From Eukaryota sp. GEM-RC1 (taxonomy: Eukaryota): a DNA stretch of 64,000 bases. Of this stretch, positions 1 to 26,122 are shown in pieces. Both the position numbers and the translations under genes were made by a program. The stretch covers positions 2,046,001 through 2,110,000 of the forward strand of contig JAUFOQ010000004.1 of NCBI GenBank assembly GCA_040285855.1. The letters run 5' to 3'. Every line of letters begins with the position of its first letter. Position 1 is the first letter of the stretch. The notes beneath the pieces are model-generated. The model made no database searches and was not told where the DNA came from. It worked only from the letters and a program-made list of their open reading frames with translations.

Positions 1-377
1 AGCTTCAGCAATTGCAATAGCGCCTTCAGGACCAATTGAGTTGTTTCTTAGATCGATCGTAGAAGCCTCATTTCTCACCATCTGATCATAACAATTCTTC
101 AACTTAGAGCTCAGCTTTCTCCAATCAATAACAAGTTTCTTCTCTTCAACTTGCTGGACAGGAGATACATGTTTAACCGATTTGATTGGTAAAACAGTGT
201 CATCTTGGGAGGTAGAAGAAGCAACACTGGATTCAGAATCCACAGACAGAGAGGTTAAACGACGGGAAGCAGCAGAGTAGACTGACAAAAGTTCTTCATT
301 TAGGGAGGAGATGATGGAGGACTGGTGTTGAAGATGGGTGGAAGTAGTTGTAATGAATTGTTCGTTAATCTTTGGTT
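1..377 (-). pseudogene. 5'-truncated LRR cassette (3' part outside window)
   Basis: Same junction (+ strand ...gttaatctttggtt|ggaaaatacag) and same linker plus first LRR as the other cassettes. Confidence 0.85.
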
Positions 378-1381
378 GGAAAATACAGTTTGAGTGTTAA
401 GGTTATGAGGTTTTTCGGACCTTAAAATCTCACGTTTTTCAACAGGCTTTCTACATTTACGATTTTCGTTTTCCAGCTGGTTTACAGAATACATATTCAT
501 ACTCATTACAGTGTAGCTTAGTGAGTGCTAGATAAGTTACTCTATTAAAGATGTACAAAGATCGGTTCTGTGTGTTGAGACAAATACAAAACAAGATGTG
601 ACCTTTAATTAAAGACCATTCACAATCTACGAACAACCAAATTCTAACCAGTTGTTAGCACCAAGTGATATATCTAAATACTTTTTTCCAGTTTTCATTG
701 TGGAACTTCTGAACAAATTCTAAACACAAAGTTTTTAACAATACAAATTCTTAATTTCGTCAACTGTAAACTTCCCCATAAAGAAACCGTGGAAGCAAAA
801 CTTTGATATTGTGGTGTGTTCGTGTTATAACTCCGCCATTTGATTGTCTCCTGCTGACTGCAAACTATTTTGGCAATTCTTTGTCTATAACTAACAGGTT
901 TATTATGCACATGGCAATGAGTACATATAAAAACACATGTAAAATTATCATTGAAAACAAACAAAGCATCATTTAGTTACATTGAATCTTTCAAAAACTT
1001 GTTCTTGAGCGAAAATACAATCGTGTTAATTATGAGTCAAAATGTTGATGATTCCAAGAGTGTAAACATTCGAAATAATGTAGCATTATTTCAGAAACTA
1101 ATTACTATCTGGTGTTTTTGACAACAATAGTAAATGAACTACTGAACACGATGTGTCTATTCGCCAGAGTAGTCTTGTATCTGAAAATCTGCTAAGCAGG
1201 TTTGGTATTGGTTTCTTTGTGGGTCACTTTGGAGTTGTATTTGAGATAATGATTGCTCTGACCTAAACGATATTTGAAGTGTAATACATTCATTCTTTGA
1301 TGGCTGATGATGATGGTGCTCTTGATAAGAAATCATTTATGATTTTTGAGTAATGTGATTTTATGTCCAAGGAAAATATCT

Positions 1382-2202
1382 TTAGAAACGCATTCTATTC
1401 TTGTGTAGTGATTTTAATGACTGTTGTGTTTGACTGTTGATTGAGTTGTTAGATAGATAGATCACAGTAACAGACGAATTCAACTTTAAAGCTTCAGCAA
1501 TTGCAGTAGCGCCTTCATTACCAATTGAGTTGTTATGTAGATAGATCACAGTAACAGACGAATTCAACTTTAAAGCTTCAGCAATTGCAGTAGCGCCTTC
1601 ATTACCAATTGAGTTGCTAGATAGATCGATCCTAGTAACAGACGAATTCAACTTTAAAGCTTCAGCAATTGCAATAGCGCCTCCAGGACCAATTGAGTTG
1701 TTATGTAGATAGATATCAGAAACAGACGAATTCAGCTTTAAAGCTTCAGCAATTGCAATAGCGCCTTCAGGACCAATTGAGTTGTTATGTAGATAGATCC
1801 TGCTAACAGACGAATTCACCTTTAAAGCTTCAGCAATTGCAATAGCGCCTTCAGGACCAATTGAGTTGTTTCTTAGATCGATCGTAGAAGCCTCATTTCT
1901 CACCATCTGATCATAACAATTCTTCAACTTAGAGCTAAGCTTACTCCAATCAATAACAAGTTTCTTCTCTTCAACTTGCTGGACAGGAGATACATGTTTA
2001 GCCGATTTGATTGGTAAAACAGTGTCATCTTGGGAGGTAGAAGAAGCAACACTGGATTCAGAATCCACAGACAGAGAGGTTAAACGACGGGAAGCAGCAG
2101 AGTAGACTGACAAAAGTTCTTCATTTAGGGAGGAGATGATGGAGGACTGGTGTTGAAGATGGGTGGAAGTAGTTGTAATGAATTGTTCGTTAATCTTTGG
2201 TT
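1382..2202 (-). pseudogene. 5'-truncated LRR cassette, 6 LRR strands, frame intact
   Basis: Homology to the full gene starts at PKINEQ. An in-frame TAA lies 7 codons upstream. The ORF-track 'M' is a TTG Leu codon. Equals gene B minus two repeats. Confidence 0.85.
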
Positions 2203-3206
2203 GGAAAATACAGTTTGAGTGTTAAGGTTATGAGGTTTTTCGGACCTTAAAATCTCACGTTTTTCAACAGGCTTTCTACATTTACGATTTTCGTTTTCCA
2301 GCTGGTTTACAGAATACATATTCATACTCATTACAGTGTAGCTTAGTGAGTGCTAGATAAGTTACTCTATTAAAGATGTACAAAGATCGGTTCTGTGTGT
2401 TGAGACAAATACAAAACAAGATGTGACCTTTAATTAAAGACCATTCACAATCTACGAACAACCAAATTCTAACCAGTTGTTAGCACCAAGTGATATATCT
2501 AAATACTTTTTTCCAGTTTTCATTGTGGAACTTCTGAACAAATTCTAAACACAAAGTTTTTAACAATACAAATTCTTAATTTCGTCAACTGTAAACTTCC
2601 CCATAAAGAAACCGTGGAAGCAAAACTTTGATATTGTGGTGTGTTCGTGTTATAACTCCGCCATTTGATTGTCTCCTGCTGACTGCAAACTATTTTGGCA
2701 ATTCTTTGTCTATAACTAACAGGTTTATTATGCACATGGCAATGAGTACATATAAAAACACATGTAAAATTATCATTGAAAACAAACAAAGCATCATTTA
2801 GTTACATTGAATCTTTCAAAAACTTGTTCTTGAGCGAAAATACAATCGTGTTAATTATGAGTCAAAATGTTGATGATTCCAAGAGTGTAAACATTCGAAA
2901 TAATGTAGCATTATTTCAGAAACTAATTACTATCTGGTGTTTTTGACAACAATAGTAAATGAACTACTGAACACGATGTGTCTATTCGCCAGAGTAGTCT
3001 TGTATCTGAAAATCTGCTAAGCAGGTTTGGTATTGGTTTCTTTGTGGGTCACTTTGGAGTTGTATTTGAGATAATGATTGCTCTGACCTAAACGATATTT
3101 GAAGTGTAATACATTCATTCTTTGATGGCTGATGATGATGGTGCTCTTGATAAGAAATCATTTATGATTTTTGAGTAATGTGATTTTATGTCCAAGGAAA
3201 ATATCT

Positions 3207-4911
3207 TTAGAAACGCATTCTATTCTTGTGTAGTGATTTTAATGACTGTTGTGTTTGACTGTTGATTGAGTTGTTAGATAGATAGATCACAGTAACAGAC
3301 GAATTCAACTTTAAAGCTTCAGCAATTGCAGTAGCGCCTTCATTACCAATTGAGTTGTTATGTAGATAGATCACAGTAACAGACGAATTCAACTTTAAAG
3401 CTTCAGCAATTGCAGTAGCGCCTTCATTACCAATTGAGTTGCTAGATAGATCGATCCTAGTAACAGACGAATTCAACTTTAAAGCTTCAGCAATTGCAAT
3501 AGCGCCTCCAGGACCAATTGAGTTGTTATGTAGATAGATATCAGAAACAGACGAATTCAGCTTTAAAGCTTCAGCAATTGCAATAGCGCCTTCAGGACCA
3601 ATTGAGTTGTTATGTAGATAGATCCTGCTAACAGACGAATTCAACTTTAAAGCTTCAGCAATTGCAATAGCGCCTCCAGGACCAATTGAGTTGTTATGTA
3701 GATAGATATCAGAAACAGACGAATTCAGCTTTAAAGCTTCAGCAATTGCAATAGCGCCTTCAGGACCAATTGAGTTGTTATGTAGATAGATCCTGCTAAC
3801 AGACGAATTCACCTTTAAAGCTTCAGCAATTGCAATAGCGCCTTCAGGACCAATTGAGTTGTTTCTTAGATCGATCGTAGAAGCCTCATTTCTCACCATC
3901 TGATCATAACAATTCTTCAACTTAGAGCTAAGCTTACTCCAATCAATAACAAGTTTCTTCTCTTCAACTTGCTGGACAGGAGATACATGTTTAGCCGATT
4001 TGATTGGTAAAACAGTGTCATCTTGGGAGGTAGAAGAAGCAACACTGGATTCAGAATCCACAGACAGAGAGGTTAAACGACGGGAAGCAGCAGAGTAGAC
4101 TGACAAAAGTTCTTCATTTAGGGAGGAGATGATGGAGGACTGGTGTTGAAGATGGGTGGAAGTAGTTGTAATGAATTGTTCGTTAATCTTTGGTTTAAAG
4201 ACTACGGGTTTTCCTGTCTTCAAGTCATTCATAATAGCACAAGAATCCAGCATAGTTTCTTCCAGTAGCAAAGTTAGGCTCTCTTTAATTCGGGTAAATC
4301 CAGTCGTTGCTTGCTGTAGTGCATATTCAGCTGATTGTGTAACCTTTTCAATAGCCACAGACAACTCCTGATTGATAGAGTTTATATTCTGTTCAACGGA
4401 GGCTCGACCTTCATCAAAGGGAAGCAACTTCTTCTTGTGCTGGTCATGATCACCAAGGATAGCACACGTTGAGCATAGGGCAACAGAACAAGAAGTACAG
4501 AAGAGGTCAAAGGATTTGGAAGCATGTATCGGACATTTAGGCACAATGGATGCGTGTTTCTTTTGCAGGGGAATAGCAACATGGGATCGGAAGAGTTTCG
4601 GTCGATGAGTATCCTTAAAGCATTGGTCGCATAAATCGGCATTACATTCAGCACAATAACAAGTCGCAGCAGCTTCATCACACTCAAAACAAACAGATTC
4701 CCCCCTGTCCAGCAACGAAAGCTTCAATGGCCTCCTTCAACTTGTAGTTAGGACAGAGCCTTGACTTGTCCACCTCAGCTCGGCAGATCGGACACCCATC
4801 ATGAGAAACAAGCCACTCCTGTAAATCCGACATACAAAAGGTGTGGCCACACCAAGTAGTTACCGGATTCTTGAGGATTTCATGACAAATGTCACAGAGG
4901 TAGTGAGACAT
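3207..4911 (-). CDS. RING/B-box1/B-box2/coiled-coil/LRR (TRIM-like E3 ligase) gene B, 8 LRR strands; +1 frameshift in C-run 4700-4705
   Basis: ORFs 4684-4911 (RING CDICH...CGHTFC...CPICR) and 3207-4727 together are colinear with intact gene A. The run is C6 here versus C5 in gene A. Confidence 0.85.
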
Positions 4912-5351
4912 TGGAAGAAGAAAATAAAACCCAGATTTAAGATTTCATTTTGGAAAACTCTCAAACTCGTTTTGTCGCACGACAATTTTTTCTCCTTTTG
5001 GGCACTTTCTAAACCTGTTCAAACAGTTATAGCACCATTTATAAGCCAACCTCAATACCTTCTCTTTGCAGCATTCCCATACACCCAATCTAGCTTTATT
5101 GGGGATCATTGTTTTCTTTTTGACATCCAGAAAGGGTAAAGAACAGAGAGTATTGTTAGTGGACTGTTGTTTTTCTTACGCAGCAAAGGAAACATAGGGT
5201 AAACTTAGGACGTGAGTTCACCCTTGTTAATCACCAACACACTACTGTGCTTTTCACCTGAATTGCATATTTCACAACATTCTTACACCTTTTTCCCACA
5301 GACTTTTCACATCAAAATGCCTTCATATCCGTCTCTTCCTTCCAGTGTCTC

Positions 5352-5467
5352 TGCAATAGTATTGCAAAAGATTAAAATAAATATTTTTTATCTACGTGTA
5401 CAAAAATAAATATTTTTCATGAAAAATATTTAAATATTGCAATAGAAATATTTTTTCCCGACCCCTG
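5352..5467. mobile_element. AT-rich terminal fragment of a probable hAT-like MITE
   Basis: Reverse complement starts CAGGGGTCGGGAAAAAATATTT, resembling CAGGGGTGACAAAAAATATATT at 60922. It begins where homology with the gene A upstream region stops. Confidence 0.4.
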
Positions 5468-5468
5468 A

Positions 5469-6635
5469 CTGTCAGGCACCAATTAGTGACCCACCTCCTA
5501 ATAGTGCCCCCCTCCTAATAGTGACCCACTTTAGGGGTGGGGCTATAATTTAGTGCCCCAGTGTTGATCAAGATCACACAAATGGGTGATAAAAACAGTC
5601 TTATGTCAATAAAAAGAATAAACGATTAGATTCAGATTTAATAGTGGTATTTGGAACTGTGATGAAACTGCCATATTTTGTGAACCAAATGAATCAAGAA
5701 CAATTGATTTTATTGACCAAAAGATTGTTGTTGTTAAGTCTGCAGGTCTCGCAAAGGTACGTTTGACCGGAATCGTTATGGCTAACGCTCTAGGAGTGAA
5801 AAAACTCCTGCCATTATAGCACAAAGATCAGGAAACAGAACCAATAGAGAAGAAGGCTGCTTTATCTTGAAAAGAGAATCATCTTTGATGAATGGAGATT
5901 TATTCATCAAATATCTGCAGTTAATGTTTCCATTGACCAGTAAGGCTGCTGCCAACAGAATGCTATTGGTATTTGATTCAGCTCCTGCCCATCGAAGTAA
6001 GAAGGTCAAGGCTTATCTCAAGGAAAGGGGGTTCAACTATGTTTTGATTCTCGGTGGTTTAACTGGATTATTACAGCCAGCAGACGTCAGTTGGTTCAAA
6101 CCTATGAAAGCAACTATCAGGAATTGTATTGAAGAATGGTTGGAGACTGCACCTGTAACGACCTCCAATCGAGTTAGAGCACCTTTGGCTAACGATATGG
6201 CAAAATGGATGAAAGAGTCGTTGGACAAGTTAAAGAGTGAAGTAATATCAAAATCTTTTCAAGTGTCTTTTCTAGGGCCTTCGCAGACCTTATTGATTTC
6301 TCGCCATCCATCAATCCGTCCTCACTTAGATATCAATAGTTTCGATGCATTATTACCATATTCATCAAGTGATGAGGAGGAAGTAATCGATTTGGATTCA
6401 TCGTCTGATGATGACATCGATGACCTTCTTCAACTCAACAATTCATTGAATTTGGGGATGGATAATGATGTTGTTGCAGTCTTTGACTAGAGTTATATTG
6501 AAATATAAAGTTGTTTTATGGGTCATTTATGAACAAAGACAAAAGGATCCTAATAGTGACCCCCTCCTAATAGTGACCCAGTTTGGGGGTGGGGCTATAA
6601 TTTAGTGACCCGGGGTACTATTTGGCGCCTGACAG
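5469..6635 (+). mobile_element. pogo/Tigger-like (Tc1-mariner superfamily) DNA transposon, internally deleted
   Basis: Imperfect TIRs CTGTCAGGCACCAATTAGTGACCC / GGGGTACTATTTGGCGCCTGACAG, TA at the right flank, subterminal CCTAATAGTG(A/C)CCC repeats at both ends, internal DDE_1 motifs. Confidence 0.9.
5645..6490 (+). pseudogene. DDE_1 (pogo/CENP-B family) transposase fragment
   Basis: Motifs GIWNCDET (~5645-5670), LLVFDSAPAH and GGLTGLLQPADVSWFKPMK, with an acidic tail. No N-terminal DNA-binding domain; frame disrupted upstream of 5867. Confidence 0.85.
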
Positions 6636-7622
6636 TATTAAGGTTATGAGGTTTTTCGGACCTTAAAATCTCACGTTTTTCAACAGGCTTTCTACATTTA
6701 CGATTTTCGTTTTCCAGCTGGTTTACAGAATACATATTCATACTCATTACAGTGTAGCTTAGTGAGTGCTAGATAAGTTACTCTATTAAAGATGTACAAA
6801 GATCGGTTCTGTGTGTTGAGACAAATACAAAACAAGATGTGACCTTTAATTAAAGACCATTCACAATCTACGAACAACCAAATTCTAACCAGTTGTTAGC
6901 ACCAAGTGATATATCTAAATACTTTTTTCCAGTTTTCATTGTGGAACTTCTGAACAAATTCTAAACACAAAGTTTTTAACAATACAAATTCTTAATTTCG
7001 TCAACTGTAAACTTCCCCATAAAGAAACCGTGGAAGCAAAACTTTGATATTGTGGTGTGTTCGTGTTATAACTCCGCCATTTGATTGTCTCCTGCTGACT
7101 GCAAACTATTTTGGCAATTCTTTGTCTATAACTGACAGGTTTATTATGCACATGGCAATGAGTACATATAAAAACACATGTAAAATTATCATTGAAAACA
7201 AACAAAGCATCATTTAGTTACATTGAATCTTTCAAAAACTTGTTCTTGAGCGAAAATACAATCGTGTTAATTATGAGTCAAAATGTTGATGATTCCAAGA
7301 GTGTAAACATTCGAAATAATGTAGCATTATTTCAGAAACTAATTACTATCTGGTGTTTTTGACAACAATAGTAAATGAACTACTGAACACGATGTGTCTA
7401 TTCGCCAGAGTAGTCTTGTATCTGAAAATCTGCTAAGCAGTTTTGGTATTGGTTTCTTTGTGGGTCACTTTGGAGTTGTATTTGAGATAATGATTGCTCT
7501 GACCTAAACGATATTTGAAGTGTAATACATTCATTCTTTGATGGCTGATGATGATGGTGCTCTTGATAAGAAATCATTTATGATTTTTGAGTAATGTGAT
7601 TTTATGTCCAAGGAAAATATCT

Positions 7623-8530
7623 TTAGAAATAAATTCTATTCTTGTGTAGTGATTTTAATGACTGTTGTGTTTGACTGTCGATTGAGTTGTTACCTAGATA
7701 GATCTCAGTTACAGACGAATTCAACTTTAAAGCTTCAGCAATTGCAATAGCGCCTTCATTACCAATTGAGTTGTTATATAGATTGATCACAGTAACAGAC
7801 GAATTCAACTTTAAAGCTTCAGCAATTGCAATAGCGCCTTCATTACCAATTGAGTTGTTACCTAGATCGATCCTAGTAACAGACGAATTCACCTTTAAAG
7901 CTTCAGCAATTGCAATAGCGCCTTCAGGACCAATTGAGTTGTTATGTAGATAAATCTGAGAAACAGACGAATTCACCTTTAAAGCTTCAGCAATTGCAAT
8001 AGCGCCTTCAGGACCAATTGAGTTGTTATGTAGATAAATCTGAGAAACAGACGAATTCACCTTTAAAGCTTCAGCAATTGCAATAGCGCCTTCATTACCA
8101 ATTGAGTTGTTATATAGATAGATATCAGAAACAGACGAATTCAGCTTTAAAGCTTCTGCAATTGCAATAGCGCCTTCAGGACCAATTGAGTTGTTATCTA
8201 GACTGATCGCAGAAACCTCATTTCTCACCATCTGATCATAACAGTTCTTCAGCTCAGAGCTCAGCTTTCTCCAATCAATAACAAGTTTCTTCTCTTCAAC
8301 TTGCTGGACAGGAGACACACTTTCAGCAGACTTGATTGGTAAAACAAAGGAATCATCTTGAGACCCAACTGAAGCAACACTGGATTCAGAATCCACAGAC
8401 AGAGAGGTTAAACGACGGGAAGCAGCAGAGTAGACTGACAAAAGTTCTTCATTTAGGGAGGAGATGATGGAGGACTGGTGTTGAAGATGGGTGGAAGTAG
8501 TTGTAATGAATTGTTCGTTAATCTTTGGTT
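7623..8530 (-). pseudogene. 5'-truncated LRR cassette, 7 strands
   Basis: Common junction; open frame; 28-aa repeats xxIxLxxNSIG(P/N)EGAIAIAEALK(L/V)NSSV. Confidence 0.85.
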
Positions 8531-9534
8531 GGAAAATACAGTTTGAGTATTAAGGTTATGAGGTTTTTCGGACGTTAAAATCTCACGTTTTTCAACAGGC
8601 TTTCTACATTTACGATTTCCGTTTTCCAGCTGGTTTACAGAATACATATTCATACTCATTACAGTGTAGCTTAGTGAGTGCTAGATAAGTTACTCTATTA
8701 AAGATGTACAAAGATCGGTTCTGTGTGTTGAGACAAATACAAAACAAGATGTGACCTTTAATTAAAGACCATTCACAATCTACGAACAACCAAATTCTAA
8801 CCAGTTGTTAGCACCAAGTGATATATCTAAATACTTTTTTCCAGTTTTCATTGTGGAACTTCTGAACAAATTCTAAACACAAAGTTTTTAACAATACAAA
8901 TTCTTAATTTCGTCAACTGTAAACTTCCCCATAAAGAAACCGTGGAAGCAAAACTTTGATATTGTGGTGTGTTCGTGTTATAACTCCGCCATTTGATTGT
9001 CTCCTGCTGACTGCAAACTATTTTGGCAATTCTTTGTCTATAACTAACAGGTTTATTATGCACATGGCAATGAGTACATATAAAAACACATGTAAAATTA
9101 TCATTGAAAACAAACAAAGCATCATTTAGTTACATTGAATCTTTCAAAAACTTGTTCTTGAGCGAAAATACAATCGTGTTAATTATGAGTCAAAATGTTG
9201 ATGATTCCAAGAGTGTAAACATTCGAAATAATGTAGCATTATTTCAGAAACTAATTACTATCTGGTGTTTTTGACAACAATAGTAAATGAACTACTGAAC
9301 ACGATGTGTCTATTCGCCAGAGTAGTCTTGTATCTGAAAATCTGCTAAGCAGTTTTGGTATTGGTTTCTTTGTGGGTCACTTTGGAGTTGTATTTGAGAT
9401 AATGATTGCTCTGACCTAAACGATATTTGAAGTGTAATACATTCATTCTTTGATGGCTGATGATGATGGTGCTCTTGATAAGAAATCATTTATGATTTTT
9501 GAGTAATGTGATTATATGTCCAAGGAAAATATCT

Positions 9535-10694
9535 TTAGAAATAAATTCTATTCTTGTGTAGTGATTTTAATGACTGTTGTGTTTGACTGTCGATTGAGTT
9601 GTTACCTAGATAGATATCAGAAACAGACGAATTCACCTTTAAAGCTTCTGCAATTGCAATAACGCCTTCATTACCAATTGAGTTGTTAGATAGATCGATC
9701 CTACTAACAGACGAATTCACCTTTAAAGCTTCAGCAATTGCAATAGCGCCTTCATTACCAATTGAGTTGTTAGATAGATTGATCACAGTAACAGACGAAT
9801 TCACCTTTAAAGCTTCAGCAATTGCAATAGCGCCTTCATTACCAATTGAGTTGTTACCTAGATAGATCACAGTAACAGACGAATTCAACTTTAAAGCTTC
9901 AGCAATTGCAATAGCGCCTTCAGGACCAATTGAGTTGTTCTCTAGATAAATCTGAGAAACAGACGAATTCACCTTTAAAGCTTCAGCAATTGCAATAGCG
10001 CCTTCATTACCAATTGAGTTGTTATATAGATAGATATCAGAAACAGACGAATTCACCTTTAAAGCTTCAGCAATTGCAATAGCGCCTTCAGGACCAATTG
10101 AGTTGTTATATAGATAGATATCAGAAACAGACGCGTTCACCTTTAAAGCTTCAGCAATTGCCATAGCGCCTTCATTACCAATTGAGTTGTTACCTAGATT
10201 GATCACAGTAACAGACGAATTCAACTTTAAAGCTTCAGCAATTGCAATAGCGCCTTCAGGACCAATTGAGTTGTTATATAGATTGATCACAGTAACAGAC
10301 GAATTCAACTTTAAAGCTTCAGCAATTGCAATAGCGCCTTCAGGACCAATTGAGTTGTTAGATAGACCGATCGCAGAAACCTCATTTCTTACCATCTGAT
10401 CATAACAGTTCTTCAGCTCAGAGCTCAGCTTTCTCCAATCAATAACAAGTTTCTTCTCTTCAACTTGCTGGACAGGAGACACACTTTCAGCAGACTTGAT
10501 TGGTAAAACAAAGGAATCATCTTGAGACCCAACTGAAGCAACACTGGATTCAGAATCCACAGACAGAGAGGTTAAACGACGGGAAGCAGCAGAGTAGACT
10601 GACAAAAGTTCTTCATTTAGGGAGGAGATGATGGAGGACTGGTGTTGAAGATGGGTGGAAGTAGTTGTAATGAATTGTTCGTTAATCTTTGGTT
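9535..10694 (-). pseudogene. 5'-truncated LRR cassette, 10 strands
   Basis: Common junction; open frame; LRR repeats as in the other cassettes. Confidence 0.85.
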
Positions 10695-11697: not shown

Positions 11698-13193
11698 TTA
11701 GAAACGCATTCTATTCTTGTGTAGTGATTTTAATGACTGTTGTGTTTGACTGTTGATTGAGTTGTTAGATAGATAGATCACAGTAACAGACGAATTCAAC
11801 TTTAAAGCTTCAGCAATTGCAGTAGCGCCTTCATTACCAATTGAGTTGTTATGTAGATAGATCACAGTAACAGACGAATTCAACTTTAAAGCTTCAGCAA
11901 TTGCAGTAGCGCCTTCATTACCAATTGAGTTGCTAGATAGATCGATCCTACTAACAGACGAATTCACCTTTAAAGCTTCAGCAATTGCAATAGCGCCTTC
12001 AGGACCAATTGAGTTGTTATGTAGATAAATCTGAGAAACAGACGAATTCACCTTTAAAGCTTCAGCAATTGCAATAGCGCCTTCAGGACCAATTGAGTTG
12101 TTATGTAGATAAATCTGAGAAACAGACGAATTCACCTTTAAAGCTTCAGCAATTGCAATAGCGCCTTCAGGACCAATTGAGTTGTTATGTAGATAAATCT
12201 GAGAAACAGACGAATTCACCTTTAAAGCTTCAGCAATTGCAATAGCGCCTTCATTACCAATTGAGTTGTTATGTAGATAGATATCAGAAACAGACGAATT
12301 CAGCTTTAAAGCTTCAGCAATTGCAATAGCGCCTTCAGGACCAATTGAGTTGTTAGATAGATAGATCACAGTAACAGACGAATTCAACTTTAAAGCTTCA
12401 GCAATTGCAGTAGCGCCTTCATTACCAATTGAGTTGTTATGTAGATAGATATCAGAAACAGACGAATTCAGCTTTAAAGCTTCAGCAATTGCAATAGCGC
12501 CTTCAGGACCAATTGAGTTGTTATGTAGATAGATATCAGAAACAGACGAATTCAGCTTTAAAGCTTCAGCAATTGCAATAGCGCCTTCAGGACCAATTGA
12601 GTTGTTAGATAGATAGATCACAGTAACAGACGAATTCAACTTTAAAGCTTCAGCAATTGCAATAGCGCCTTCAGGACCAATTGAGTTGTTATGTAGATAG
12701 ATATCAGAAACAGACGAATTCAGCTTTAAAGCTTCAGCAATTGCAATAGCGCCTTCATTACCAATTGAGTTGTTAGATAGATAGATCACAGTAACAGACG
12801 AATTCAACTTTAAAGCTTCAGCAATTGCAGTAGCGCCTTCATTACCAATTGAGTTGTTATGTAGACCGATCGCAGAAACCTCATTTCTCACCATCTGATC
12901 ATAACAGTTCTTCAGCTCAGAGCTCAGCTTTCTCCAATCAATAACAAGTTTCTTCTCTTCAACTTGCTGGACAGGAGACACACTTTCAGCAGACTTGATT
13001 GGTAAAACAAAGGAATCATCTTGAGACCCAACTGAAGCAACACTGGATTCAGAATCCACAGACAGAGAGGTTAAACGACGGGAAGCAGCAGAGTAGACTG
13101 ACAAAAGTTCTTCATTTAGGGAGGAGATGATGGAGGACTGGTGTTGAAGATGGGTGGAAGTAGTTGTAATGAATTGTTCATTAATCTTTGGTT
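11698..13193 (-). pseudogene. 5'-truncated LRR cassette, 14 strands (A-type N-terminus, B-type C-terminus)
   Basis: Common junction; open frame; linker VGSQDDSFV as in gene A, terminus KNRMRF as in gene B. Confidence 0.85.
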
Positions 13194-14196
13194 GGAAAAT
13201 ACAGTTTCAGTATTAAGGTTATGAGGTTTTCTGGACCTTAAAATCTCACGTTTTTCAACAGGCTTTCTACATTTACGATTTTTGTTTTCCAGCAGGTTTA
13301 CAGAATACATATTCATACTCATTACAGTGTAGCTTAGTGAGTGCTAGATAAGTTACTCTATTAAAGATGTACAAAGATCGGTTCTGTGTGTTGAGACAAA
13401 TACAAAACAAGATGTGACCTTTAATTAAAGACCATTCACAATCTACGAACAACCAAATTCTAACCAGTTGTTAGCACCAAGTGATATATCTAAATACTTT
13501 TTCCAGTTTTCATTGTGGAACTTCTGAACAAATTCTAAACACAAAGTTTTTAACAATACAAATTCTTAATTTCGTCAACTGTAAACTTCCCCATAAAGAA
13601 ACCGTGGAAGCAAAACTTTGATATTGTGGTGTGTTCGTGTTATAACTCCGCCATTTGATTGTCTCCTGCTGACTGCAAACTATTTTGGCAATTCTTTGTC
13701 TATAACTAACAGGTTTATTATGCACATGGCAATGAGTACATATAAAAACACATGTAAAATTATCATTGAAAACAAACAAAGCATCATTTAGTTACATTGA
13801 ATCTTTCAAAAACTTGTTCTTGAGCGAAAATACAATCGTGTTAATTATGAGTCAAAATGTTGATGATTCCAAGAGTGTAAACATTCGAAATAATGTAGCA
13901 TTATTTCAGAAACTAATTACTATCTGGTGTTTTTGACAACAATAGTAAATGAACTACTGAACACGATGTGTCTATTCGCCAGAGTAGTCTTGTATCTGAA
14001 AATCTGCTAAGCAGTTTTGGTATTGGTTTCTTTGTGGGTCACTTTGGAGTTGTATTTGAGATAATGATTGCTCTGACCTAAACGATATTTGAAGTGTAAT
14101 ACATTCATTCTTTGATGGCTGATGATGATGGTGCTCTTGATAAGAAATCATTTATGATTTTTGAGTAATGTGATTTTATGTCCAAGGAAAATATCT

Positions 14197-15104
14197 TTAG
14201 AAATAAATTCCATTCTTGTGTAGTGATTTTAATGACTGTTGTGTTTGACTGTCGATTGAGTTGTTAGATAGATCGATCCTACTAACAGACGAATTCACCT
14301 TTAAAGCTTCAGCAATTGCAATAGCGCCTTCATTACCAATTGAGTTGTTAGATAGATTGATCACAGTAACAGACGAATTCAACTTTAAAGCTTCAGCAAT
14401 TGCAATAGCGCCTTCATTACCAATTGAGTTGTTAGATAGATTGATCACAGTAACAGACGAATTCACCTTTAAAGCTTCAGCAATTGCAATAGCGCCTTCA
14501 TTACCAATTGAGTTGTTACCTAGATAGATCCTAGTAACAGACGAATTCACCTTTAAAGCTTCAGCAATTGCAATAGCGCCTTCAGGACCAATTGAGTTGT
14601 TATGTAGATAAATCTGAGAAACAGACGAATTCACCTTTAAAGCTTCAGCAATTGCAATAGCGCCTTCATTGCCAATTGAGTTGTTACCTAGATCGATCCT
14701 ACTAACAGACGAATTCACCGTTAAAGCTTCTGCAATTGCAATAGCGCCTTCAGGACCAATTGAGTTGTTAGATAGACCGATCGCAGAAACCTCATTTCTC
14801 ACCATCTGATCATAACAGTTCTTCAGCTCAGAGCTCAGCTTTCTCCAATCAATAACAAGTTTCTTCTCTTCAACTTGCTGGACAGGAGACACACTTTCAG
14901 CAGACTTGATTGGTAAAACAAAGGAATCATCTTGAGACCCAACTGAAGCAACACTGGATTCAGAATCCACAGACAGAGAGGTTAAACGACGGGAAGCAGC
15001 AGAGTAGACTGACAAAAGTTCTTCATTTAGGGAGGAGATGATGGAGGACTGGTGTTGAAGATGGGTGGAAGTAGTTGTAATGAATTGTTCGTTAATCTTT
15101 GGTT
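14197..15104 (-). pseudogene. 5'-truncated LRR cassette, 7 strands
   Basis: Common junction; open frame. Confidence 0.85.
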
Positions 15105-16107: not shown

Positions 16108-17351
16108 TTAGAAATAAATTCTATTCTTGTGTAGTGTTTTTAATGACTGTTGTGTTTGACTGTCGATTGAGTTGTTACCTAGATAGATCTCAGTTACAGA
16201 CGAATTCAACTTTAAAGCTTCAGCAATTGCAATAGCGCCTTCATTACCAATTGAGTTGTTATATAGATTGATCACAGTAACAGACGAATTCAACTTTAAA
16301 GCTTCAGCAATTGCAATGACGCCTTCATTACCAATTGAGTTGTTATGTAGATCGATCCTACTAACAGACGAATTCACCTTTAAAGCTTCAGCAATTGCAA
16401 TAGCGCCTTCATTACCAATTGAGTTGTTATATAGATTGATCACAGTAACAGACGAATTCACCTTTAAAGCTTCAGCAATTGCAATAGCGCCTTCATTACC
16501 AATTGAGTTGTTATATAGATTGATCACAGTAACAGACGAATTCACCTTTAAAGCTTCAGCAATTGCAATAGCGCCTTCAGGACCAATTGAGTTGTTATAT
16601 AGATTGATCACAGTAACAGACGAATTCACCTTTAAAGCTTCAGCAATTGCAATAGCGCCTTCAGGACCAATTGAGTTGTTATATAGATTGATCACAGTAA
16701 CAGACGAATTCAACTTTAAAGCTTCAGCAATTGCAATAGCGCCTTCAGGACCAATTGAGTTGTTATGTAGATAAATCTGAGAAACAGACGAATTCACCTT
16801 TAAAGCTTCAGCAATTGCAATAGCGCCTTCATTACCAATTGAGTTGTTATATAGATCGATCCTACTAACAGACGAATTCACCTTTAAAGCTTCAGCAATT
16901 GCAATAGCGCCTTCATTACCAATTGAGTTGTTATATAGATTGATCACAGTAACAGACGAATTCAGCTTTAAAGCTTCTGCAATTGCAATAGCGCCTTCAG
17001 GACCAATTGAGTTGTTATCTAGACCGATCGCAGAAACCTCATTTCTCACCATCTGATCATAACAGTTCTTCAGCTCAGAGCTCAGCTTTCTCCAATCAAT
17101 AACAAGTTTCTTCTCTTCAACTTGCTGGACAGGAGACACACTTTCAGCAGACTTGATTGGTAAAACAAAGGAATCATCTTGAGACCCAACTGAAGCAACA
17201 CTGGATTCAGAATCCACAGACAGAGAGGTTAAACGACGGGAAGCAGCAGAGTAGACTGACAAAAGTTCTTCATTTAGGGAGGAGATGATGGAGGATTGGT
17301 GTTGAAGATGGGTGGAAGTAGTTGTAATGAATTGTTCGTTAATCTTTGGTT
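16108..17351 (-). pseudogene. 5'-truncated LRR cassette, 11 strands
   Basis: Common junction; open frame; translation identical to the cassette at 20183. Confidence 0.85.
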
Positions 17352-18354
17352 GGAAAATACAGTTTGAGTATTAAGGTTATGAGGTTTTTCGGACCTTAAA
17401 ATCTCACGTTTTTCAACAGGCTTTCTACATTTACGATTTTCGTTTTCCAGCTGGTTTACAGAATACATATTCATACTCATTACAGTGTAGCTTAGTGAGT
17501 GCTAGATAAGTTACTCTATTAAAGATGTACAAAGATCGGTTCTGTGTGTTGAGACAAATACAAAACAAGATGTGACCTTTAATTAAAGACCATTCACAAT
17601 CTACGAACAACCAAATTCTAACCAGTTGTTAGCACCAAGTGATATATCTAAATACTTTTTCCAGTTTTCATTGTGGAACTTCTGAACAAATTCTAAACAC
17701 AAAGTTTTTAACAATACAAATTCTTAATTTCGTCAACTGTAAACTTCCCCATAAAGAAACCGTGGAAGCAAAACTTTGATATTGTGGTGTGTTCGTGTTA
17801 TAACTCCGCCATTTGATTGTCTCCTGCTGACTGCAAACTATTTTGGCAATTCTTTGTCTATAACTAACAGGTTTATTATGCACATGGCAATGAGTACATA
17901 TAAAAACACATGTAAAATTATCATTGAAAACAAACAAAGCATCATTTAGTTACATTGAATCTTTCAAAAACTTGTTCTTGAGCGAAAATACAATCGTGTT
18001 AATTATGAGTCAAAATGTTGATGATTCCAAGAGTGTAAACATTCGAAATAATGTAGCATTATTTCAGAAACTAATTACTATCTGGTGTTTTTGACAACAA
18101 TAGTAAATGAACTACTGAACACGATGTGTCTATTCGCCAGAGTAGTCTTGTATCTGAAAATCTGCTAAGCAGTTTTGGTATTGGTTTCTTTGTGGGTCAC
18201 TTTGGAGTTGTATTTGAGATAATGATTGCTCTGACCTAAACGATATTTGAAGTGTAATACATTCATTCTTTGATGGCTGATGATGATGGTGCTCTTGATA
18301 AGAAATCATTTATGATTTTTGAGTAATGTGATTTTATGTCCAAGGAAAATATCT

Positions 18355-19178
18355 TTAGAAATAAATTCTATTCTTGTGTAGTGATTTTAATGACTGTTGT
18401 GTTTGACTGTCGATTGAGTTGTTATGTAGATAAATCTGAGAAACAGACGAATTCAACTTTAAAGCTTCAGCAATTGCGATAGCGCCTTCATTACCAATTG
18501 AGTTGTTATGTAGATAAATCTGAGAAACAGACGAATTCAACTTTAAAGCTTCAGCAATTGCAATAGCGCCTTCAGGACCAATTGAGTTGTTACCTAGATA
18601 GATCCTAGTAACAGACGAATTCAGCTTTAAAGCTTCTGCAATTGCAATAGCGCCTTCAGGACCAATTGAGTTGTTATGTAGATAAATCTGAGAAACAGAC
18701 GAATTCACCTTTAAAGCTTCAGCAATTGCAATAGCGCCTTCATTGCCAATTGAGTTGTTACCTAGATCGATCCTACTAACAGACGAATTCACCGTTAAAG
18801 CTTCTGCAATTGCAATAGCGCCTTCAGGACCAATTGAGTTGTTAGATAGACCGATCGCAGAAACCTCATTTCTCACCATCTGATCATAACAGTTCTTCAG
18901 CTCAGAGCTCAGCTTTCTCCAATCAATAACAAGTTTCTTCTCTTCAACTTGCTGGACAGGAGACACACTTTCAGCAGACTTGATTGGTAAAACAAAGGAA
19001 TCATCTTGAGACCCAACTGAAGCAACACTGGATTCAGAATCCACAGACAGAGAGGTTAAACGACGGGAAGCAGCAGAGTAGACTGACAAAAGTTCTTCAT
19101 TTAGGGAGGAGATGATGGAGGACTGGTGTTGAAGATGGGTGGAAGTAGTTGTAATGAATTGTTCGTTAATCTTTGGTT
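18355..19178 (-). pseudogene. 5'-truncated LRR cassette, 6 strands (chimeric)
   Basis: First three strands match the cassette at 14197; last three match gene A. Confidence 0.85.
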
Positions 19179-20182
19179 GGAAAATACAGTTTGAGTATTA
19201 AGGTTATGAGGTTTTTCGGACCTTAAAATCTCACGTTTTTCAACAGGCTTTCTACATTTACGATTTTCGTTTTCCAGCTGGTTTACAGAATACATATTCA
19301 TACTCATTACAGTGTAGCTTAGTGAGTGCTAGATAAGTTACTCTATTAAAGATGTACAAAGATCGGTTCTGTGTGTTGAGACAAATACAAAACAAGATGT
19401 GACCTTTAATTAAAGACCATTCACAATCTACGAACAACCAAATTCTAACCAGTTGTTAGCACCAAGTGATATATCTAAATACTTTTTTCCAGTTTTCATT
19501 GTGGAACTTCTGAACAAATTCTAAACACAAAGTTTTTAACAATACAAATTCTTAATTTCGTCAACTGTAAACTTCCCCATAAAGAAACCGTGGAAGCAAA
19601 ACTTTGATATTGTGGTGTGTTCGTGTTATAACTCCGCCATTTGATTGTCTCCTGCTGACTGCAAACTATTTTGGCAATTCTTTGTCTATAACTAACAGGT
19701 TTATTATGCACATGGCAATGAGTACATATAAAAACACATGTAAAATTATCATTGAAAACAAACAAAGCATCATTTAGTTACATTGAATCTTTCAAAAACT
19801 TGTTCTTGAGCGAAAATACAATCGTGTTAATTATGAGTCAAAATGTTGATGATTCCAAGAGTGTAAACATTCGAAATAATGTAGCATTATTTCAGAAACT
19901 AATTACTATCTGGTGTTTTTGACAACAATAGTAAATGAACTACTGAACACGATGTGTCTATTCGCCAGAGTAGTCTTGTATCTGAAAATCTGCTAAGCAG
20001 TTTTGGTATTGGTTTCTTTGTGGGTCACTTTGGAGTTGTATTTGAGATAATGATTGCTCTGACCTAAACGATATTTGAAGTGTAATACATTCATTCTTTG
20101 ATGGCTGATGATGATGGTGCTCTTGATAAGAAATCATTTATGATTTTTGAGTAATGTGATTTTATGTCCAAGGAAAATATCT

Positions 20183-21426
20183 TTAGAAATAAATTCTATT
20201 CTTGTGTAGTGTTTTTAATGACTGTTGTGTTTGACTGTCGATTGAGTTGTTACCTAGATAGATCTCAGTTACAGACGAATTCAACTTTAAAGCTTCAGCA
20301 ATTGCAATAGCGCCTTCATTACCAATTGAGTTGTTATATAGATTGATCACAGTAACAGACGAATTCAACTTTAAAGCTTCAGCAATTGCAATGACGCCTT
20401 CATTACCAATTGAGTTGTTATGTAGATCGATCCTACTAACAGACGAATTCACCTTTAAAGCTTCAGCAATTGCAATAGCGCCTTCATTACCAATTGAGTT
20501 GTTATATAGATTGATCACAGTAACAGACGAATTCACCTTTAAAGCTTCAGCAATTGCAATAGCGCCTTCATTACCAATTGAGTTGTTATATAGATTGATC
20601 ACAGTAACAGACGAATTCACCTTTAAAGCTTCAGCAATTGCAATAGCGCCTTCAGGACCAATTGAGTTGTTATATAGATTGATCACAGTAACAGACGAAT
20701 TCACCTTTAAAGCTTCAGCAATTGCAATAGCGCCTTCAGGACCAATTGAGTTGTTATATAGATTGATCACAGTAACAGACGAATTCAACTTTAAAGCTTC
20801 AGCAATTGCAATAGCGCCTTCAGGACCAATTGAGTTGTTATGTAGATAAATCTGAGAAACAGACGAATTCACCTTTAAAGCTTCAGCAATTGCAATAGCG
20901 CCTTCATTACCAATTGAGTTGTTATATAGATCGATCCTACTAACAGACGAATTCACCTTTAAAGCTTCAGCAATTGCAATAGCGCCTTCATTACCAATTG
21001 AGTTGTTATATAGATTGATCACAGTAACAGACGAATTCAGCTTTAAAGCTTCTGCAATTGCAATAGCGCCTTCAGGACCAATTGAGTTGTTATCTAGACC
21101 GATCGCAGAAACCTCATTTCTCACCATCTGATCATAACAGTTCTTCAGCTCAGAGCTCAGCTTTCTCCAATCAATAACAAGTTTCTTCTCTTCAACTTGC
21201 TGGACAGGAGACACACTTTCAGCAGACTTGATTGGTAAAACAAAGGAATCATCTTGAGACCCAACTGAAGCAACACTGGATTCAGAATCCACAGACAGAG
21301 AGGTTAAACGACGGGAAGCAGCAGAGTAGACTGACAAAAGTTCTTCATTTAGGGAGGAGATGATGGAGGATTGGTGTTGAAGATGGGTGGAAGTAGTTGT
21401 AATGAATTGTTCGTTAATCTTTGGTT
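20183..21426 (-). pseudogene. 5'-truncated LRR cassette, 11 strands
   Basis: Common junction; open frame. Confidence 0.85.
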
Positions 21427-22430
21427 GGAAAATACAGTTTGAGTATTAAGGTTATGAGGTTTTTCGGACCTTAAAATCTCACGTTTTTCAACAGGCTTTC
21501 TACATTTACGATTTTCGTTTTCCAGCTGGTTTACAGAATACATATTCATACTCATTACAGTGTAGCTTAGTGAGTGCTAGATAAGTTACTCTATTAAAGA
21601 TGTACAAAGATCGGTTCTGTGTGTTGAGACAAATACAAAACAAGATGTGACCTTTAATTAAAGACCATTCACAATCTACGAACAACCAAATTCTAACCAG
21701 TTGTTAGCACCAAGTGATATATCTAAATACTTTTTTCCAGTTTTCATTGTGGAACTTCTGAACAAATTCTAAACACAAAGTTTTTAACAATACAAATTCT
21801 TAATTTCGTCAACTGTAAACTTCCCCATAAAGAAACCGTGGAAGCAAAACTTTGATATTGTGGTGTGTTCGTGTTATAACTCCGCCATTTGATTGTCTCC
21901 TGCTGACTGCAAACTATTTTGGCAATTCTTTGTCTATAACTAACAGGTTTATTATGCACATGGCAATGAGTACATATAAAAACACATGTAAAATTATCAT
22001 TGAAAACAAACAAAGCATCATTTAGTTACATTGAATCTTTCAAAAACTTGTTCTTGAGCGAAAATACAATCGTGTTAATTATGAGTCAAAATGTTGATGA
22101 TTCCAAGAGTGTAAACATTCGAAATAATGTAGCATTATTTCAGAAACTAATTACTATCTGGTGTTTTTGACAACAATAGTAAATGAACTACTGAACACGA
22201 TGTGTCTATTCGCCAGAGTAGTCTTGTATCTGAAAATCTGCTAAGCAGTTTTGGTATTGGTTTCTTTGTGGGTCACTTTGGAGTTGTATTTGAGATAATG
22301 ATTGCTCTGACCTAAACGATATTTGAAGTGTAATACATTCATTCTTTGATGGCTGATGATGATGGTGCTCTTGATAAGAAATCATTTATGATTTTTGAGT
22401 AATGTGATTTTATGTCCAAGGAAAATATCT

Positions 22431-23969
22431 TTAGAAATAAATTCTATTCTTGTGTAGTGATTTTAATGACTGTTGTGTTTGACTGTCGATTGAGTTGTTA
22501 TGTAGATAAATCTGAGAAACAGACGAATTCAACTTTAAAGCTTCAGCAATTGCGATAGCGCCTTCATTACCAATTGAGTTGTTATGTAGATAAATCTGAG
22601 AAACAGACGAATTCAACTTTAAAGCTTCAGCAATTGCAATAGCGCCTTCAGGACCAATTGAGTTGTTACCTAGATAGATCCTAGTAACAGACGAATTCAG
22701 CTTTAAAGCTTCTGCAATTGCAATAGCGCCTTCAGGACCAATTGAGTTGTTACCTAGATAGATCCTAGTAACAGACGAATTCAGCTTTAAAGCTTCTGCA
22801 ATTGCAATAGCGCCTTCAGGACCAATTGAGTTGTTCTCTAGATAGATCTCAGTAACAGAAGAATTCACCTTTAAAGCTTCAGCAATTGCAATAGCGCCTT
22901 CAGGACCAATTGAGTTGTTAGATAGACCGATCGCAGAAACCTCATTTCTCACCATCTGATCATAACAGTTCTTCAGCTCGGAGCTCAGCTTTCTCCAATC
23001 AATAACAAGTTTCTTCTCTTCAACTTGCTGGACAGGAGACACACTTTCAGCAGACTTGATTGGTAAAACAAAGGAATCATCTTGAGACCCAACTGAAGCA
23101 ACACTGGATTCAGAATCCACAGACAGAGAGGTTAAACGACGGGAAGCAGCAGAGTAGACTGACAAAAGTTCTTCATTTAGGGAGGAGATGATGGAGGACT
23201 GGTGTTGAAGATGGGTGGAAGTAGTTGTAATGAATTGTTCGTTAATCTTTGGTTTAAAGACTACGGGTTTTCCTGTCTTCAAGTCATTCATAATAGCACA
23301 AGAATCCAGCATAGTTTCTTCCAGTAGCAAAGTTAGGCTCTCTTTAATTCGGGTAAATCCAGTCGTTGCTTGCTGTAGTGCATATTCAGCTGATTGTGTA
23401 ACCTTTTCAATAGCCACAGACAACTCCTGATTGATAGAGTTTATATTCTGTTCAACGGAGGCTCGACCTTCATCAAAGGGAAGCAACTTCTTCTTGTGCT
23501 GGTCATGATCACCAAGGATAGCACACGTTGAGCATAGGGCAACAGAACAAGAAGTACAGAAGAGGTCAAAGGATTTGGAAGCATGTATCGGACATTTAGG
23601 CACAATGGATGCGTGTTTCTTTTGCAGGGGAATAGCAACATGGGATCGGAAGAGTTTCGGTCGATGAGTATCCTTAAAGCATTGGTCGCATAAATCGGCA
23701 TTACATTCAGCACAATAACAAGTCGCAGCAGCTTTATCACACTCAAAACAAACAGATTCCCCCTGTCCAGCAACGAAAGCTTCAATGGCCTCCTTCAACT
23801 TGTAGTTAGGACAGAGCCTTGACTTGTCCACCTCAGCTCGGCAGATCGGACACCCATCATGAGAAACAAGCCACTCCTGTAAATCCGACATACAAAAGGT
23901 GTGACCACACCAAGTAGTTACCGGATTCTTGAGGATTTCATGACAAATGTCACAGAGGTAGTGAGACAT
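22431..23969 (-). CDS. Intact RING/B-box1/B-box2/coiled-coil/LRR (TRIM-like E3 ligase) gene A, 512 aa, 6 LRR strands
   Basis: ATG at 23969. RING CDICH-CGHTFCMSD-CPICR, B-box CFEC..CAEC..LCDQC..H..H, B-box CPIH..FCTSC..LCSTC..H..H, helical segment, Ser-rich linker, 28-residue ribonuclease-inhibitor-type LRRs. Confidence 0.93.
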   Translation of the reverse strand: MSHYLCDICHEILKNPVTTWCGHTFCMSDLQEWLVSHDGCPICRAEVDKSRLCPNYKLKEAIEAFVAGQGESVCFECDKAAATCYCAECNADLCDQCFKDTHRPKLFRSHVAIPLQKKHASIVPKCPIHASKSFDLFCTSCSVALCSTCAILGDHDQHKKKLLPFDEGRASVEQNINSINQELSVAIEKVTQSAEYALQQATTGFTRIKESLTLLLEETMLDSCAIMNDLKTGKPVVFKPKINEQFITTTSTHLQHQSSIISSLNEELLSVYSAASRRLTSLSVDSESSVASVGSQDDSFVLPIKSAESVSPVQQVEEKKLVIDWRKLSSELKNCYDQMVRNEVSAIGLSNNSIGPEGAIAIAEALKVNSSVTEIYLENNSIGPEGAIAIAEALKLNSSVTRIYLGNNSIGPEGAIAIAEALKLNSSVTRIYLGNNSIGPEGAIAIAEALKLNSSVSQIYLHNNSIGNEGAIAIAEALKLNSSVSQIYLHNNSIDSQTQQSLKSLHKNRIYF

Positions 23970-25403
23970 TGGAAGAAGAAAATGCAACCCAGATTTAAGA
24001 TTTCATTTTGGAAAACTCTCAAACTCGTTTTGTCGCACGACAATTTTTTTCTCCTTTTGGGCACTTTCTAAACCTGTTCAAACAGTTATAGCACCATTTA
24101 TAAGCCAACCTCAATACCTTCTCTTTGCAGCATTCCCATACACCCAATCTAGCTTTATTGGGGATCATTGTTTTCTTTTTGACATCCAGAAAGGGTAAAG
24201 AACAGAGAGTATTGTTAGTGGACTGTTGTTTTTCTTACGCAGCAAAGGAAACATAGGGTAAACTTAGGACGTGAGTTCACCCTTGTTAATCACCAACACA
24301 CTACTGTGCTTTTCACCTGAATTGCATATTTCACAACATTCTTACACCTTTTTCCCACAGACTTTTCACATCAAAATGCCTTCATATCCGTCTCTTCCTT
24401 CCAGTGTCTCTGTAATAGTGTGTCCAAACTCATAATCCTTGACTCTCCTGACTCCTTCAAACTGGTATACACTTTTGACATGATCAATGCCAAACATTAC
24501 ATGTCAGTCTTGTTACTTGTAAACCTAAGGGCTGCTTGAAACTACTTATGACTAGATAACAACCATCTTGGGTTCTTACGTGGTAAGCCAATTTCTCTAT
24601 TTCCTTTGTGTGTAGTCCCGAGTTATCGAAGCTCTGTGTATAGCAGAAATGTGTGATCGTTTTATTAGGTAAACGTATGCATATTCTCAATAAATAGCTA
24701 GTGCTGAAAGTACCATAGTCTAACACCAATGCTACATATATCATATGAAGAACAGTGGTTCATGAACTGATCACGGACACTCACGTAAATAACGGAAAAC
24801 AAAGTCATGACTCATGAGTGGTCATGTTATGTTCAACTCAGATGTGGGTATATTCTGTAGAACGAAGATCTGTTTATTGATTAACCCAGGATAAAGTGTC
24901 GATCCTTGTTCTTGTCTGAAGTTCCTAGTTAATTCGTAAACAGAAGTCTTTTCGAAAGATCCCTTAAGAGAGAACCGTGATTGAACGATGGAAGCTGTTG
25001 GGTGTCTCTGACTAACAGATTCTCCCCGCATATGCACTGAATGAAGATCTAACTAGCGGTAGATAGAAAGATACAAAATGTGACGTCCGTGACGCAACAA
25101 GCATAGAACATGTGAAGAGTAGGAGCTTGCGCAGGAGTATAAATATCACCTATCTCGATCATCAAACTGTGACATAAACGTGTCATGAAGACAGGAATGC
25201 TGTGAAATCCGAAGATATCAAGGAGTATAATGGACGGCGTCTAGGAAGAATCCACAGCATCAGTATGATAAAGCCATGAATATGTCTATACAGTGCGTAC
25301 TTCTGTATCTTCACTCGCGTGATATGTTAGAGTGAAGAGATCTACGTCATGATCGCAGAGAAGGTCTAAAGATCGAGTCATGTAGAAAATGATCTGTGTG
25401 AAA

Positions 25404-26114: not shown

Positions 26115-26122
26115 GTGTGAAA

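Follow-up and report, generated by a model that had tools for sequence, protein, structure and literature searches.

We analysed a 64,000-nucleotide (nt) stretch of DNA from Eukaryota sp. GEM-RC1, hereafter the window, and found a complete gene for a TRIM-like leucine-rich-repeat (LRR) protein (gene A) followed head to tail by seven 5′-truncated cassettes (c1 to c7), and a second such gene (gene B) followed by at least two more (c8 and c9). The cassettes have a common start, are set apart by near-identical spacers, are built of mosaic LRR modules and include recombinants between gene and cassette. We favour the reading, at a probability of about 0.5, that this array is a silent reservoir that supplies new binding ends to predicted ligases of the gene A/B type by ordinary homologous recombination.

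The units of the array were parsed one by one from six-frame open reading frames (ORFs), and all of them lie on the minus strand. Gene A occupies 22431..23969 (ATG at 23969, stop ending at 22431) and encodes 512 aa with six RI/NOD2-type LRRs. Behind it stand c1 (20183..21426; 11 LRRs), c2 (18355..19178; 6 LRRs, with a 5′ part like that of c4 and a 3′ part like that of gene A), c3 (16108..17351; 11 LRRs, the twin of c1), c4 (14197..15104; 7 LRRs), c5 (11698..13193; 14 LRRs, an A-type linker with B-type last modules, tail and spacer), c6 (9535..10694; 10 LRRs, module 3 at 10191-10108) and c7 (7623..8530; 7 LRRs). Gene B, at 3207..4911, has 8 LRRs, a 5′ half nearly identical to that of gene A, and a linker end and LRRs of another type. 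Its cassettes are c8 (1382..2202; 6 LRRs, the LRR region of gene B less two modules) and c9 (1..377), which is clipped at the edge of the window and continues with five LRR motifs in gene model P0130. The higher coordinate of each cassette is its first common base, and in 9/9 cassettes spacer and linker meet at one identical base within the KP codons of FKPKINEQ. The frame is open to the normal stop in 8/8 complete cassettes, and seven of these eight have distinct LRR regions, that of c1 being identical to that of c3.

The 10 spacers in the window (1005-1006 nt) show 0-8 pairwise substitutions, with 11 substitution columns and one indel column overall; the first of them, 1.0 kb at 21427..22430, is the 3′ flank of gene A. 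Missing from the cassettes is a stretch common to genes A and B (1168 nt at 99.4% identity, from 24419 and 5360 to the junction), which includes the presumed promoter in the 5′ flank of gene A (23970..24419) and its copy before gene B (4912..5360). Past 450 nt, the flanks of the two genes are unlike each other. This layout is far beyond chance. An earlier note on this DNA had described the layout, coordinates, strand and number of cassettes, the start at the same nucleotide of the linker, the open frames, the almost invariant 1.0-kb spacers and the missing upstream flank of ~450 bp, and all of these were confirmed; its LRR counts were also correct and had been listed in reverse order. Its statement that the cassettes lack the start codon is true of the ATG of the gene, but every cassette keeps an internal in-frame ATG just 5′ of its LRRs; its statement that they differ in LRR number and order needs correction for c1 and c3, whose LRR regions are identical.

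Two irregularities bear on the quality of the assembled array. Gene B as assembled carries one extra G within a G-run at 4705 that disrupts its reading frame. Since neighbouring conserved genes show like frame breaks, one of them also an extra G in a G-run, this is probably an assembly error and gene B is probably intact. In addition, six differences cluster across the c4/c5 junction (13180-13295) with none in the rest of that spacer; either a patch derived from an older copy of the junction or errors in long reads could account for them. The first spacer copy holds no ORF of 100 aa, no Rfam-type RNA family was found in the spacer (one chance-level Rfam match lay outside it), and tblastn for gene sequence upstream of the cassette junction found nothing. 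A decayed 5′ half of the gene was ruled out as the origin of the spacer, as 8/100 and 57-173/500 shuffles scored equally. A scan for bacterial promoters, with a model unsuited to a eukaryote, stayed at background level.

The product of gene A is predicted to be an intracellular ubiquitin ligase, an activity assigned from its domains. It has a RING (residues 6-43), two B-boxes (73-111 and 124-160), a coiled coil (~166-231), a linker and six LRRs. Pfam matched the RING to zf-C3HC4 (E = 1.5e-6, above the cut-off) and U-box (E = 1.8e-10), the B-boxes to zf-B_box in two stretches (E = 8e-12) and the repeats to LRR_6; NACHT and WD40 were not among the 15 Pfam families matched. By sequence, the N-terminal part matches the RING-B-box-coiled-coil (RBCC) structure of TRIM28 (6h3a; E = 1e-11). 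In a fold predicted from a 30-row alignment, the LRR domain has a pLDDT above 90, long helices span 166-231 and 244-281, and the RING is poorly modelled; the closest structural match of the model is the LRRs of NOD2 (E = 8e-13, root-mean-square deviation 1.7). No hydrophobic signal or membrane segment was found in the protein (top 19-residue hydropathy 1.68, inside a B-box, and 0.32 at the N-terminus). Both the TRIM-like LRR call of the earlier note and its remark that signal peptide and transmembrane segment are lacking agree with these results. The cassette start corresponds to residue 240, which in the model lies in the loop joining the two long helices (232-243). Because the junction falls in an inter-helix loop, a swap at residue 240 would exchange a whole domain.

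Variation among the repeats is focused. The 76 complete modules, each of 84 nt, differ at 7.1 positions on average and comprise 38 distinct sequences; amino-acid variation falls almost wholly at module codons 6, 18, 23, 24, 26 and 28. Among the 38 distinct modules, non-synonymous (pN) and synonymous (pS) diversity were 0.43 and 0.098 at codons 23, 24, 26 and 28, and 0.038 and 0.050 at the other codons, a descriptive comparison, the four codons having been picked after their variation was noticed. In the model, these codons map to the LRR beta-strands or next to them (e.g. 374-376), and we take them to be the exposed positions of the LxxLxLxxN motif. The model supports a concentration of module variation on the predicted concave binding face. 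Four blocks within the module, with 2, 3, 9 and 5 alleles, yield 36 combinations in 66 modules (c3 excluded as a twin), and 6/6 pairs of these variable blocks fail the four-gamete test. Module diversity thus reads as old alleles recombined, not as new mutation. We counted 20 surface types in the cassettes and 8 in genes A and B; 13 were found in cassettes only.

The array also carries a record of exchange. Cassette c2 consists of two exact segments, 236 nt of c4 and 283 nt of gene A, with the crossover near 18640-18680; together with the identity of c3 and c1, it fits one unequal crossover between c4 and gene A, whose reciprocal product would be a gene A carrying the last LRRs of c4. Likewise, c8 consists of two exact segments of gene B, i.e. 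gene B minus two modules, and c5 is an A/B hybrid with an A-type linker and a B-type final 236 nt. Of the 1168 nt of 5′ sequence, genes A and B themselves disagree at 5, but the final 175 nt of their linkers disagree at ~30, and every module is different as well. Since their 5′ parts are near-identical and their linker ends and modules differ, one RING half was joined to two LRR ends, or was homogenised across A and B. Module 3 of c6 has three alleles seen in 0/75 other modules, and its first 69 nt are identical to modules 2-3 of a paralog 35 kb away (45475..46566, plus strand), a RING-less LRR gene with its own start that carries the same three rare alleles. These segments show past exchange between genes and cassettes.

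The 3′ half of a RING-B-box-coiled-coil-LRR gene thus stands multiplied head to tail behind the intact gene, and the cassettes have swapped LRR sequence among themselves and with full-length genes. On this basis we propose the following. Because they are without the 5′ flank and start of the gene, the cassettes would not be translated. A crossover between the gene and a downstream cassette would stay in frame whether it fell within the 330-nt linker or within one of the 84-nt modules, and would bring cassette LRRs under the RING; short conversion tracts would replace single modules. The four variable residues per repeat would fix the specificity for a ligand, probably foreign or fast-evolving; the ligase activity and any immune role of gene A are putative. 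Since a diverged subfamily seems to share the layout, the layout would be old or recurrent and maintained by selection. Exchange would probably take place on the time scale of populations and not as a programmed switch in each cell.

Other loci were judged from automatic protein models alone. The closest relatives are models that carry the NCBI name Eukaryota sp. GEM-RC1, as do 6/6 other matches to the B-box-to-linker region (281-896 aa). On another contig, models P0140 (985 aa) and P0142 (1763 aa) hold a full RING-to-LRR protein and 2 and 5 extra linker-LRR units, respectively; the extra units start at VFKPK or EKFT and vary in LRR number and order. The simplest reading is that the gene predictor stitched a gene to headless cassettes via false introns, and the layout for which the earlier note would have relatives searched is to that extent probable at these two loci. 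Their linkers are 98-100% identical to those of their own genes and 75-77% identical to those of the window array. In a tree of 26 linkers (P0128 omitted as partial), the window set groups together (100/100), and the other arrays form a clade of their own (89/92, not starred). Because linkers group by locus at ~23% divergence, either the layout would be older than the ~23% protein split, with locus-wise homogenisation since, or it would have arisen twice near the same point. This apparent recurrence at other loci would lift the array well above a one-off duplication. Models P0131 and P0144 start like P0130, the c9 model, which suggests further cassettes on the same contig outside the window.

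The LRR itself is more widespread. The same 28-residue repeat occurs on varied N-termini (kinase, BTB, reticulon-like and other) in P0016, P0023, P0026, P0042, P0054, P0079 and P0123, which suggests a genome-wide expansion by effector swapping in these named relatives, and P0005 has an RBCC front with a non-LRR end. P0137, P0138, P0139 and P0141 all lose frame at one point past the second B-box, by either a shared mutation or a systematic homopolymer error. No LRR family was found among the best 5 Pfam matches of each of 32 outside relatives (from 150 listed for the N-terminal 350 residues). The nearest atlas clusters were of B-box/RING proteins (0.91-0.92) and B-box plus LRR_4 proteins (0.86), which serve as leads only, and the linker gave no usable atlas match. 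Metagenome scans returned 43 pattern matches with none confirmed, and a degenerate N-terminal pattern returned none.

Possibly, the array arose simply because a gene fragment was recently amplified in tandem, in a genome rich in repeats. The cassettes would then be functionless, their LRRs would differ because near-identical 84-nt repeats recombine fast, and their exchange with the genes would be a by-product. The spacers are 99-100% identical, one unequal crossover accounts for both c1 = c3 and c2, and the spacer tree (~10 substitutions/kb) predicts 0.46 stops in the cassettes (P(0) = 0.63). Stops are therefore not yet due, and the open frames, to which the earlier note had drawn attention, are no sign of maintenance, being uninformative on selection. 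Nor is LRR shuffling a hallmark of cassettes. The full-length paralogs P0002 and P0122 are identical at 335/340 N-terminal residues and carry 9 and 11 unlike LRRs, and the BTB-LRR models P0042 and P0123 differ by one module. Because full-length genes shuffle their LRRs as much, LRR diversity arises without cassettes and is a property of the repeats. Transposon remnants lie close by, as do five other partial or broken copies of the family with other breakpoints, and the genome of the relatives is 48% repetitive, according to Table 1 of PMC11316075. Against simple amplification, arrays in a subfamily that is 23-25% diverged seem to be cut at the same point, each of them matching its own gene, and alleles missing from A and B indicate that the cassettes are not mere copies of the present genes. 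There is also a weak synonymous excess: by hand tally, cassette-private framework changes were 6 synonymous and 5 non-synonymous, vs 24% expected (P = 0.03).

Besides the uninformative frames, the shuffling in full-length paralogs and the broken copies, several further points weigh against the silent reservoir that we favour. In no recorded case is the direction from cassette to gene unambiguous, and c6 is likely the recipient of an import from the paralog at 45475..46566. The variable alleles behind the pN/pS excess, at codons chosen after the fact, may have been selected within expressed genes and not within cassettes. The synonymous excess drops to P = 0.1 for linker and tail alone; it is a mere hint of constraint and could come from import out of working genes. 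At the other loci, the joins in P0140 and P0142 are probably false introns of automatic models, these models could possibly be joined whole genes instead, and the final unit of P0142 closely repeats its own gene. Finally, the sixth RING ligand of gene A is Asp29, not Cys. Of the diversifying receptor that the earlier note proposed, the face-focused variation, the cassette-only surface types and past exchange stand, and no sign of one-way or programmed exchange was seen.

Expression of the cassettes is in our view unlikely, whether by splicing of the RING-B-box exon to one cassette or another as its last exon, or by translation of LRR-only products that start at the internal ATG. Gene A does offer an in-frame GT, 12 nt 5′ of the junction, and every cassette an in-frame AG after 6 nt; each cassette ends in a stop and 3′ flank of its own and has the pre-LRR ATG, and models P0130, P0131 and P0144 splice a two-codon exon to cassettes. 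However, the splice signals are weak: the spacer lacks a WCTAAY branch motif as well as GTRAGT and GTRTGT, and c1 and c3 have lost the acceptor on which the models rely. Two neighbouring conserved genes, read by eye over ~8.5 kb, showed no intron. The internal ATG comes after three others that are out of frame, and an exact look-up found 0/8 ATG-started cassette or gene-B proteins on record, a weak result, as annotation masks repeats. Slightly less likely still is programmed one-way conversion of the kind known from Borrelia vlsE and chicken pseudo-V genes, with dedicated machinery and a high rate in clonal lines. A complete gene with contiguous headless cassettes, segmental mosaics and diversity held in the cassettes would fit it. 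At least two full-length genes lie in the window, though, with more elsewhere; c2 is a product of the reciprocal-crossover type and c6 probably shows import into a cassette; the junction showed only direct and inverted repeats that are short and of chance size; and no recombinase or deaminase gene was found among the 15 window ORFs scanned. Least of all do we expect the array, or much of its variation, to be an artefact of assembly or polishing (mis-joined haplotypes or mixed short reads). The two neighbouring conserved genes hold seven frame breaks, the six odd differences cluster at the c4/c5 junction, c1 equals c3, and gene B could be an allele of A; yet what sets the units of 1.8-2.5 kb apart are entire 84-nt modules and codon alleles of several bases, unlike errors, the A and B flanks diverge past 450 nt, similar units occur on other contigs, and in Podospora repeat domains of this kind are recovered accurately from long reads (PMC12222747).

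Among known systems, the array appears on our best reading to work most like the HNWD repeat pools of Podospora and to be laid out like Borrelia vls, and on present evidence it does not look like a programmed system of the VLR or vlsE type. The germline genes of agnathan variable lymphocyte receptors (VLRs) are incomplete and are assembled somatically from short cassettes. Unlike these, gene A is a complete 512-aa frame, the cassettes are whole linker-LRR-stop units, i.e. whole domains, and the LRRs are 28-residue RI-type repeats, so that the VLR analogy of the earlier note is not supported. What the two share is a binding surface diversified by LRR modules that donor cassettes provide (PMC12264053), the donor role being a proposal in our case.

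The HNWD/NWD proteins of Podospora anserina (het-d, het-e) are likewise intracellular, with C-terminal near-identical repeats and four hypervariable residues on the binding surface (PMC1805685, PMC12222747). Four residues per HNWD repeat are under positive selection, and in HNWD pseudogenes exchange with active loci keeps the WD repeats intact (PMC1805685); in both systems repeats are exchanged within and between loci, including copies taken as non-functional. The present system, known from sequence alone, differs in having LRRs instead of WD40 repeats and RING-B-box instead of HET-NACHT, and its head-to-tail array with one common cut point directly behind the gene contrasts with three scattered HNWD pseudogenes. 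Borrelia vlsE/vls shares a complete gene beside contiguous headless variable cassettes and segmental mosaics (PMC11499132, PMC3828179). In vls there is one expression site, conversion runs one way and the product is a surface lipoprotein that serves immune evasion; here there are genes A and B and more full-length paralogs on other contigs, exchange looks two-way with a direction that the sequence does not fix, the product is predicted to be cytosolic, and 1-kb spacers are present. In the chicken immunoglobulin system, too, one functional gene is accompanied by clustered non-functional copies that donate to its binding domain (PMC449846, PMC11427246), a role for which the cassettes are candidates here, but conversion there is AID-initiated and somatic in B cells. 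The LRR genes of Tetrahymena with 90-bp exons (PMC6564038) and the ROCO LRR genes of Ectocarpus (PMC3341825, PMC11378527) are, like ours, young LRR families of eukaryotes other than animals and plants, shaped by unequal crossing-over, and in brown algae ROCO LRR exon shuffling is accompanied by diversifying selection (PMC3341825, PMC11378527); those genes have one repeat per exon, in contrast to the intronless repeats and arrayed whole 3′ halves found here. TRIM/RBCC E3 ligases share RING, two B-boxes and long helices in order with the predicted ligase, which differs in its C-terminal RI-type LRR domain.

Five further RING-B-box-LRR family members with differing deletions lie in the window at 27799-28227, 37146-37790, 37807-39255, 45475-46566 and 46890-47980; the copy at 37.1-37.8 kb, which stands head to head with the next, breaks off ~60-90 nt upstream of the point where the cassettes start. 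A pogo-like DNA transposon remnant (5468..6636, plus strand; DDE_1 domain, 25-nt terminal inverted repeats) interrupts the spacer after c7, the last before gene B, ~17 nt before the junction is reached. The AT-rich elements at 5361-5466 and 60925-61075, with ends of the CAGGGGT type, are probably hAT-derived miniature inverted-repeat transposable elements. The first of these abuts both the pogo-like element and the flank of gene B, so a rearrangement linked to transposons may have brought gene B to its place. Palindromes of TGACTCATGAGTCA are abundant in an element in the 25410-26110 / 26120-27030 region, beside a hAT remnant in which a dimerisation domain was matched (E = 1e-18). Non-LTR-like retroelement copies (RVT_1 fragment) are found among 40146-44644, 50673-51211 and 61804-63504, a gag-like zinc-knuckle ORF lies between 136-nt direct repeats (41241-41376 and 42202-42337), and a long coiled-coil ORF at 32214-34347 (plus strand) has five to six 42-residue tandem repeats with up to 99% DNA identity.

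Two conserved genes lie on the minus strand. A ZNFX1-like superfamily 1 helicase gene (51836-58223) has AAA_11/AAA_12 domains, cysteine-rich repeats, a C-terminal RZ-type finger (by eye) and four frame breaks; we take this neighbour of the TRIM-LRR cluster to be a defence-type gene of RNA sensing. A SAPS/PP6R-like gene (58492-60630) has three single-base frame breaks at homopolymer runs and serves as a gauge of residual assembly error. The seven breaks of the two genes, in ~8.5 kb, fall mostly in short homopolymers (by eye). Runs of at least 4 bases number 24 in the cassettes vs 151 in these genes, and with so few such runs it is unsurprising that the cassettes are free of homopolymer errors.

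The host is likely a free-living anaerobic protist. Skoliomonas sp. GEMRC is a free-living metamonad with a 48% repetitive genome, assembled from Nanopore reads with Illumina correction and annotated with repeat-masked automatic models (PMC11316075), and we infer that it and Eukaryota sp. GEM-RC1 are one organism. That paper and its readable supplements make no mention of LRR or ubiquitin. A search chiefly outside the subscription literature found no description of an RBCC-LRR family in this lineage or in protists. On the conservative reading too, the window documents an RBCC-LRR family whose surface is hypervariable and for which no earlier description was found in the lineage.

Silent-cassette systems are known mainly from host-evading pathogens and vertebrate lymphocytes. 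A far-reaching form of our reading, which we consider doubtful, is that a free-living protist keeps selected silent LRR libraries behind several TRIM-like genes and draws on them for the expressed gene fast enough for the intracellular receptor repertoire of a clone to change; this would be a cassette-fed anticipatory defence aimed inward, outside animals and parasites. If the array is a reservoir, one could ask in culture whether unexpressed diversity is maintained by selection, and a cassette-fed TRIM-like ligase in a free-living protist would extend the logic of silent cassettes to unicellular, cell-autonomous defence.

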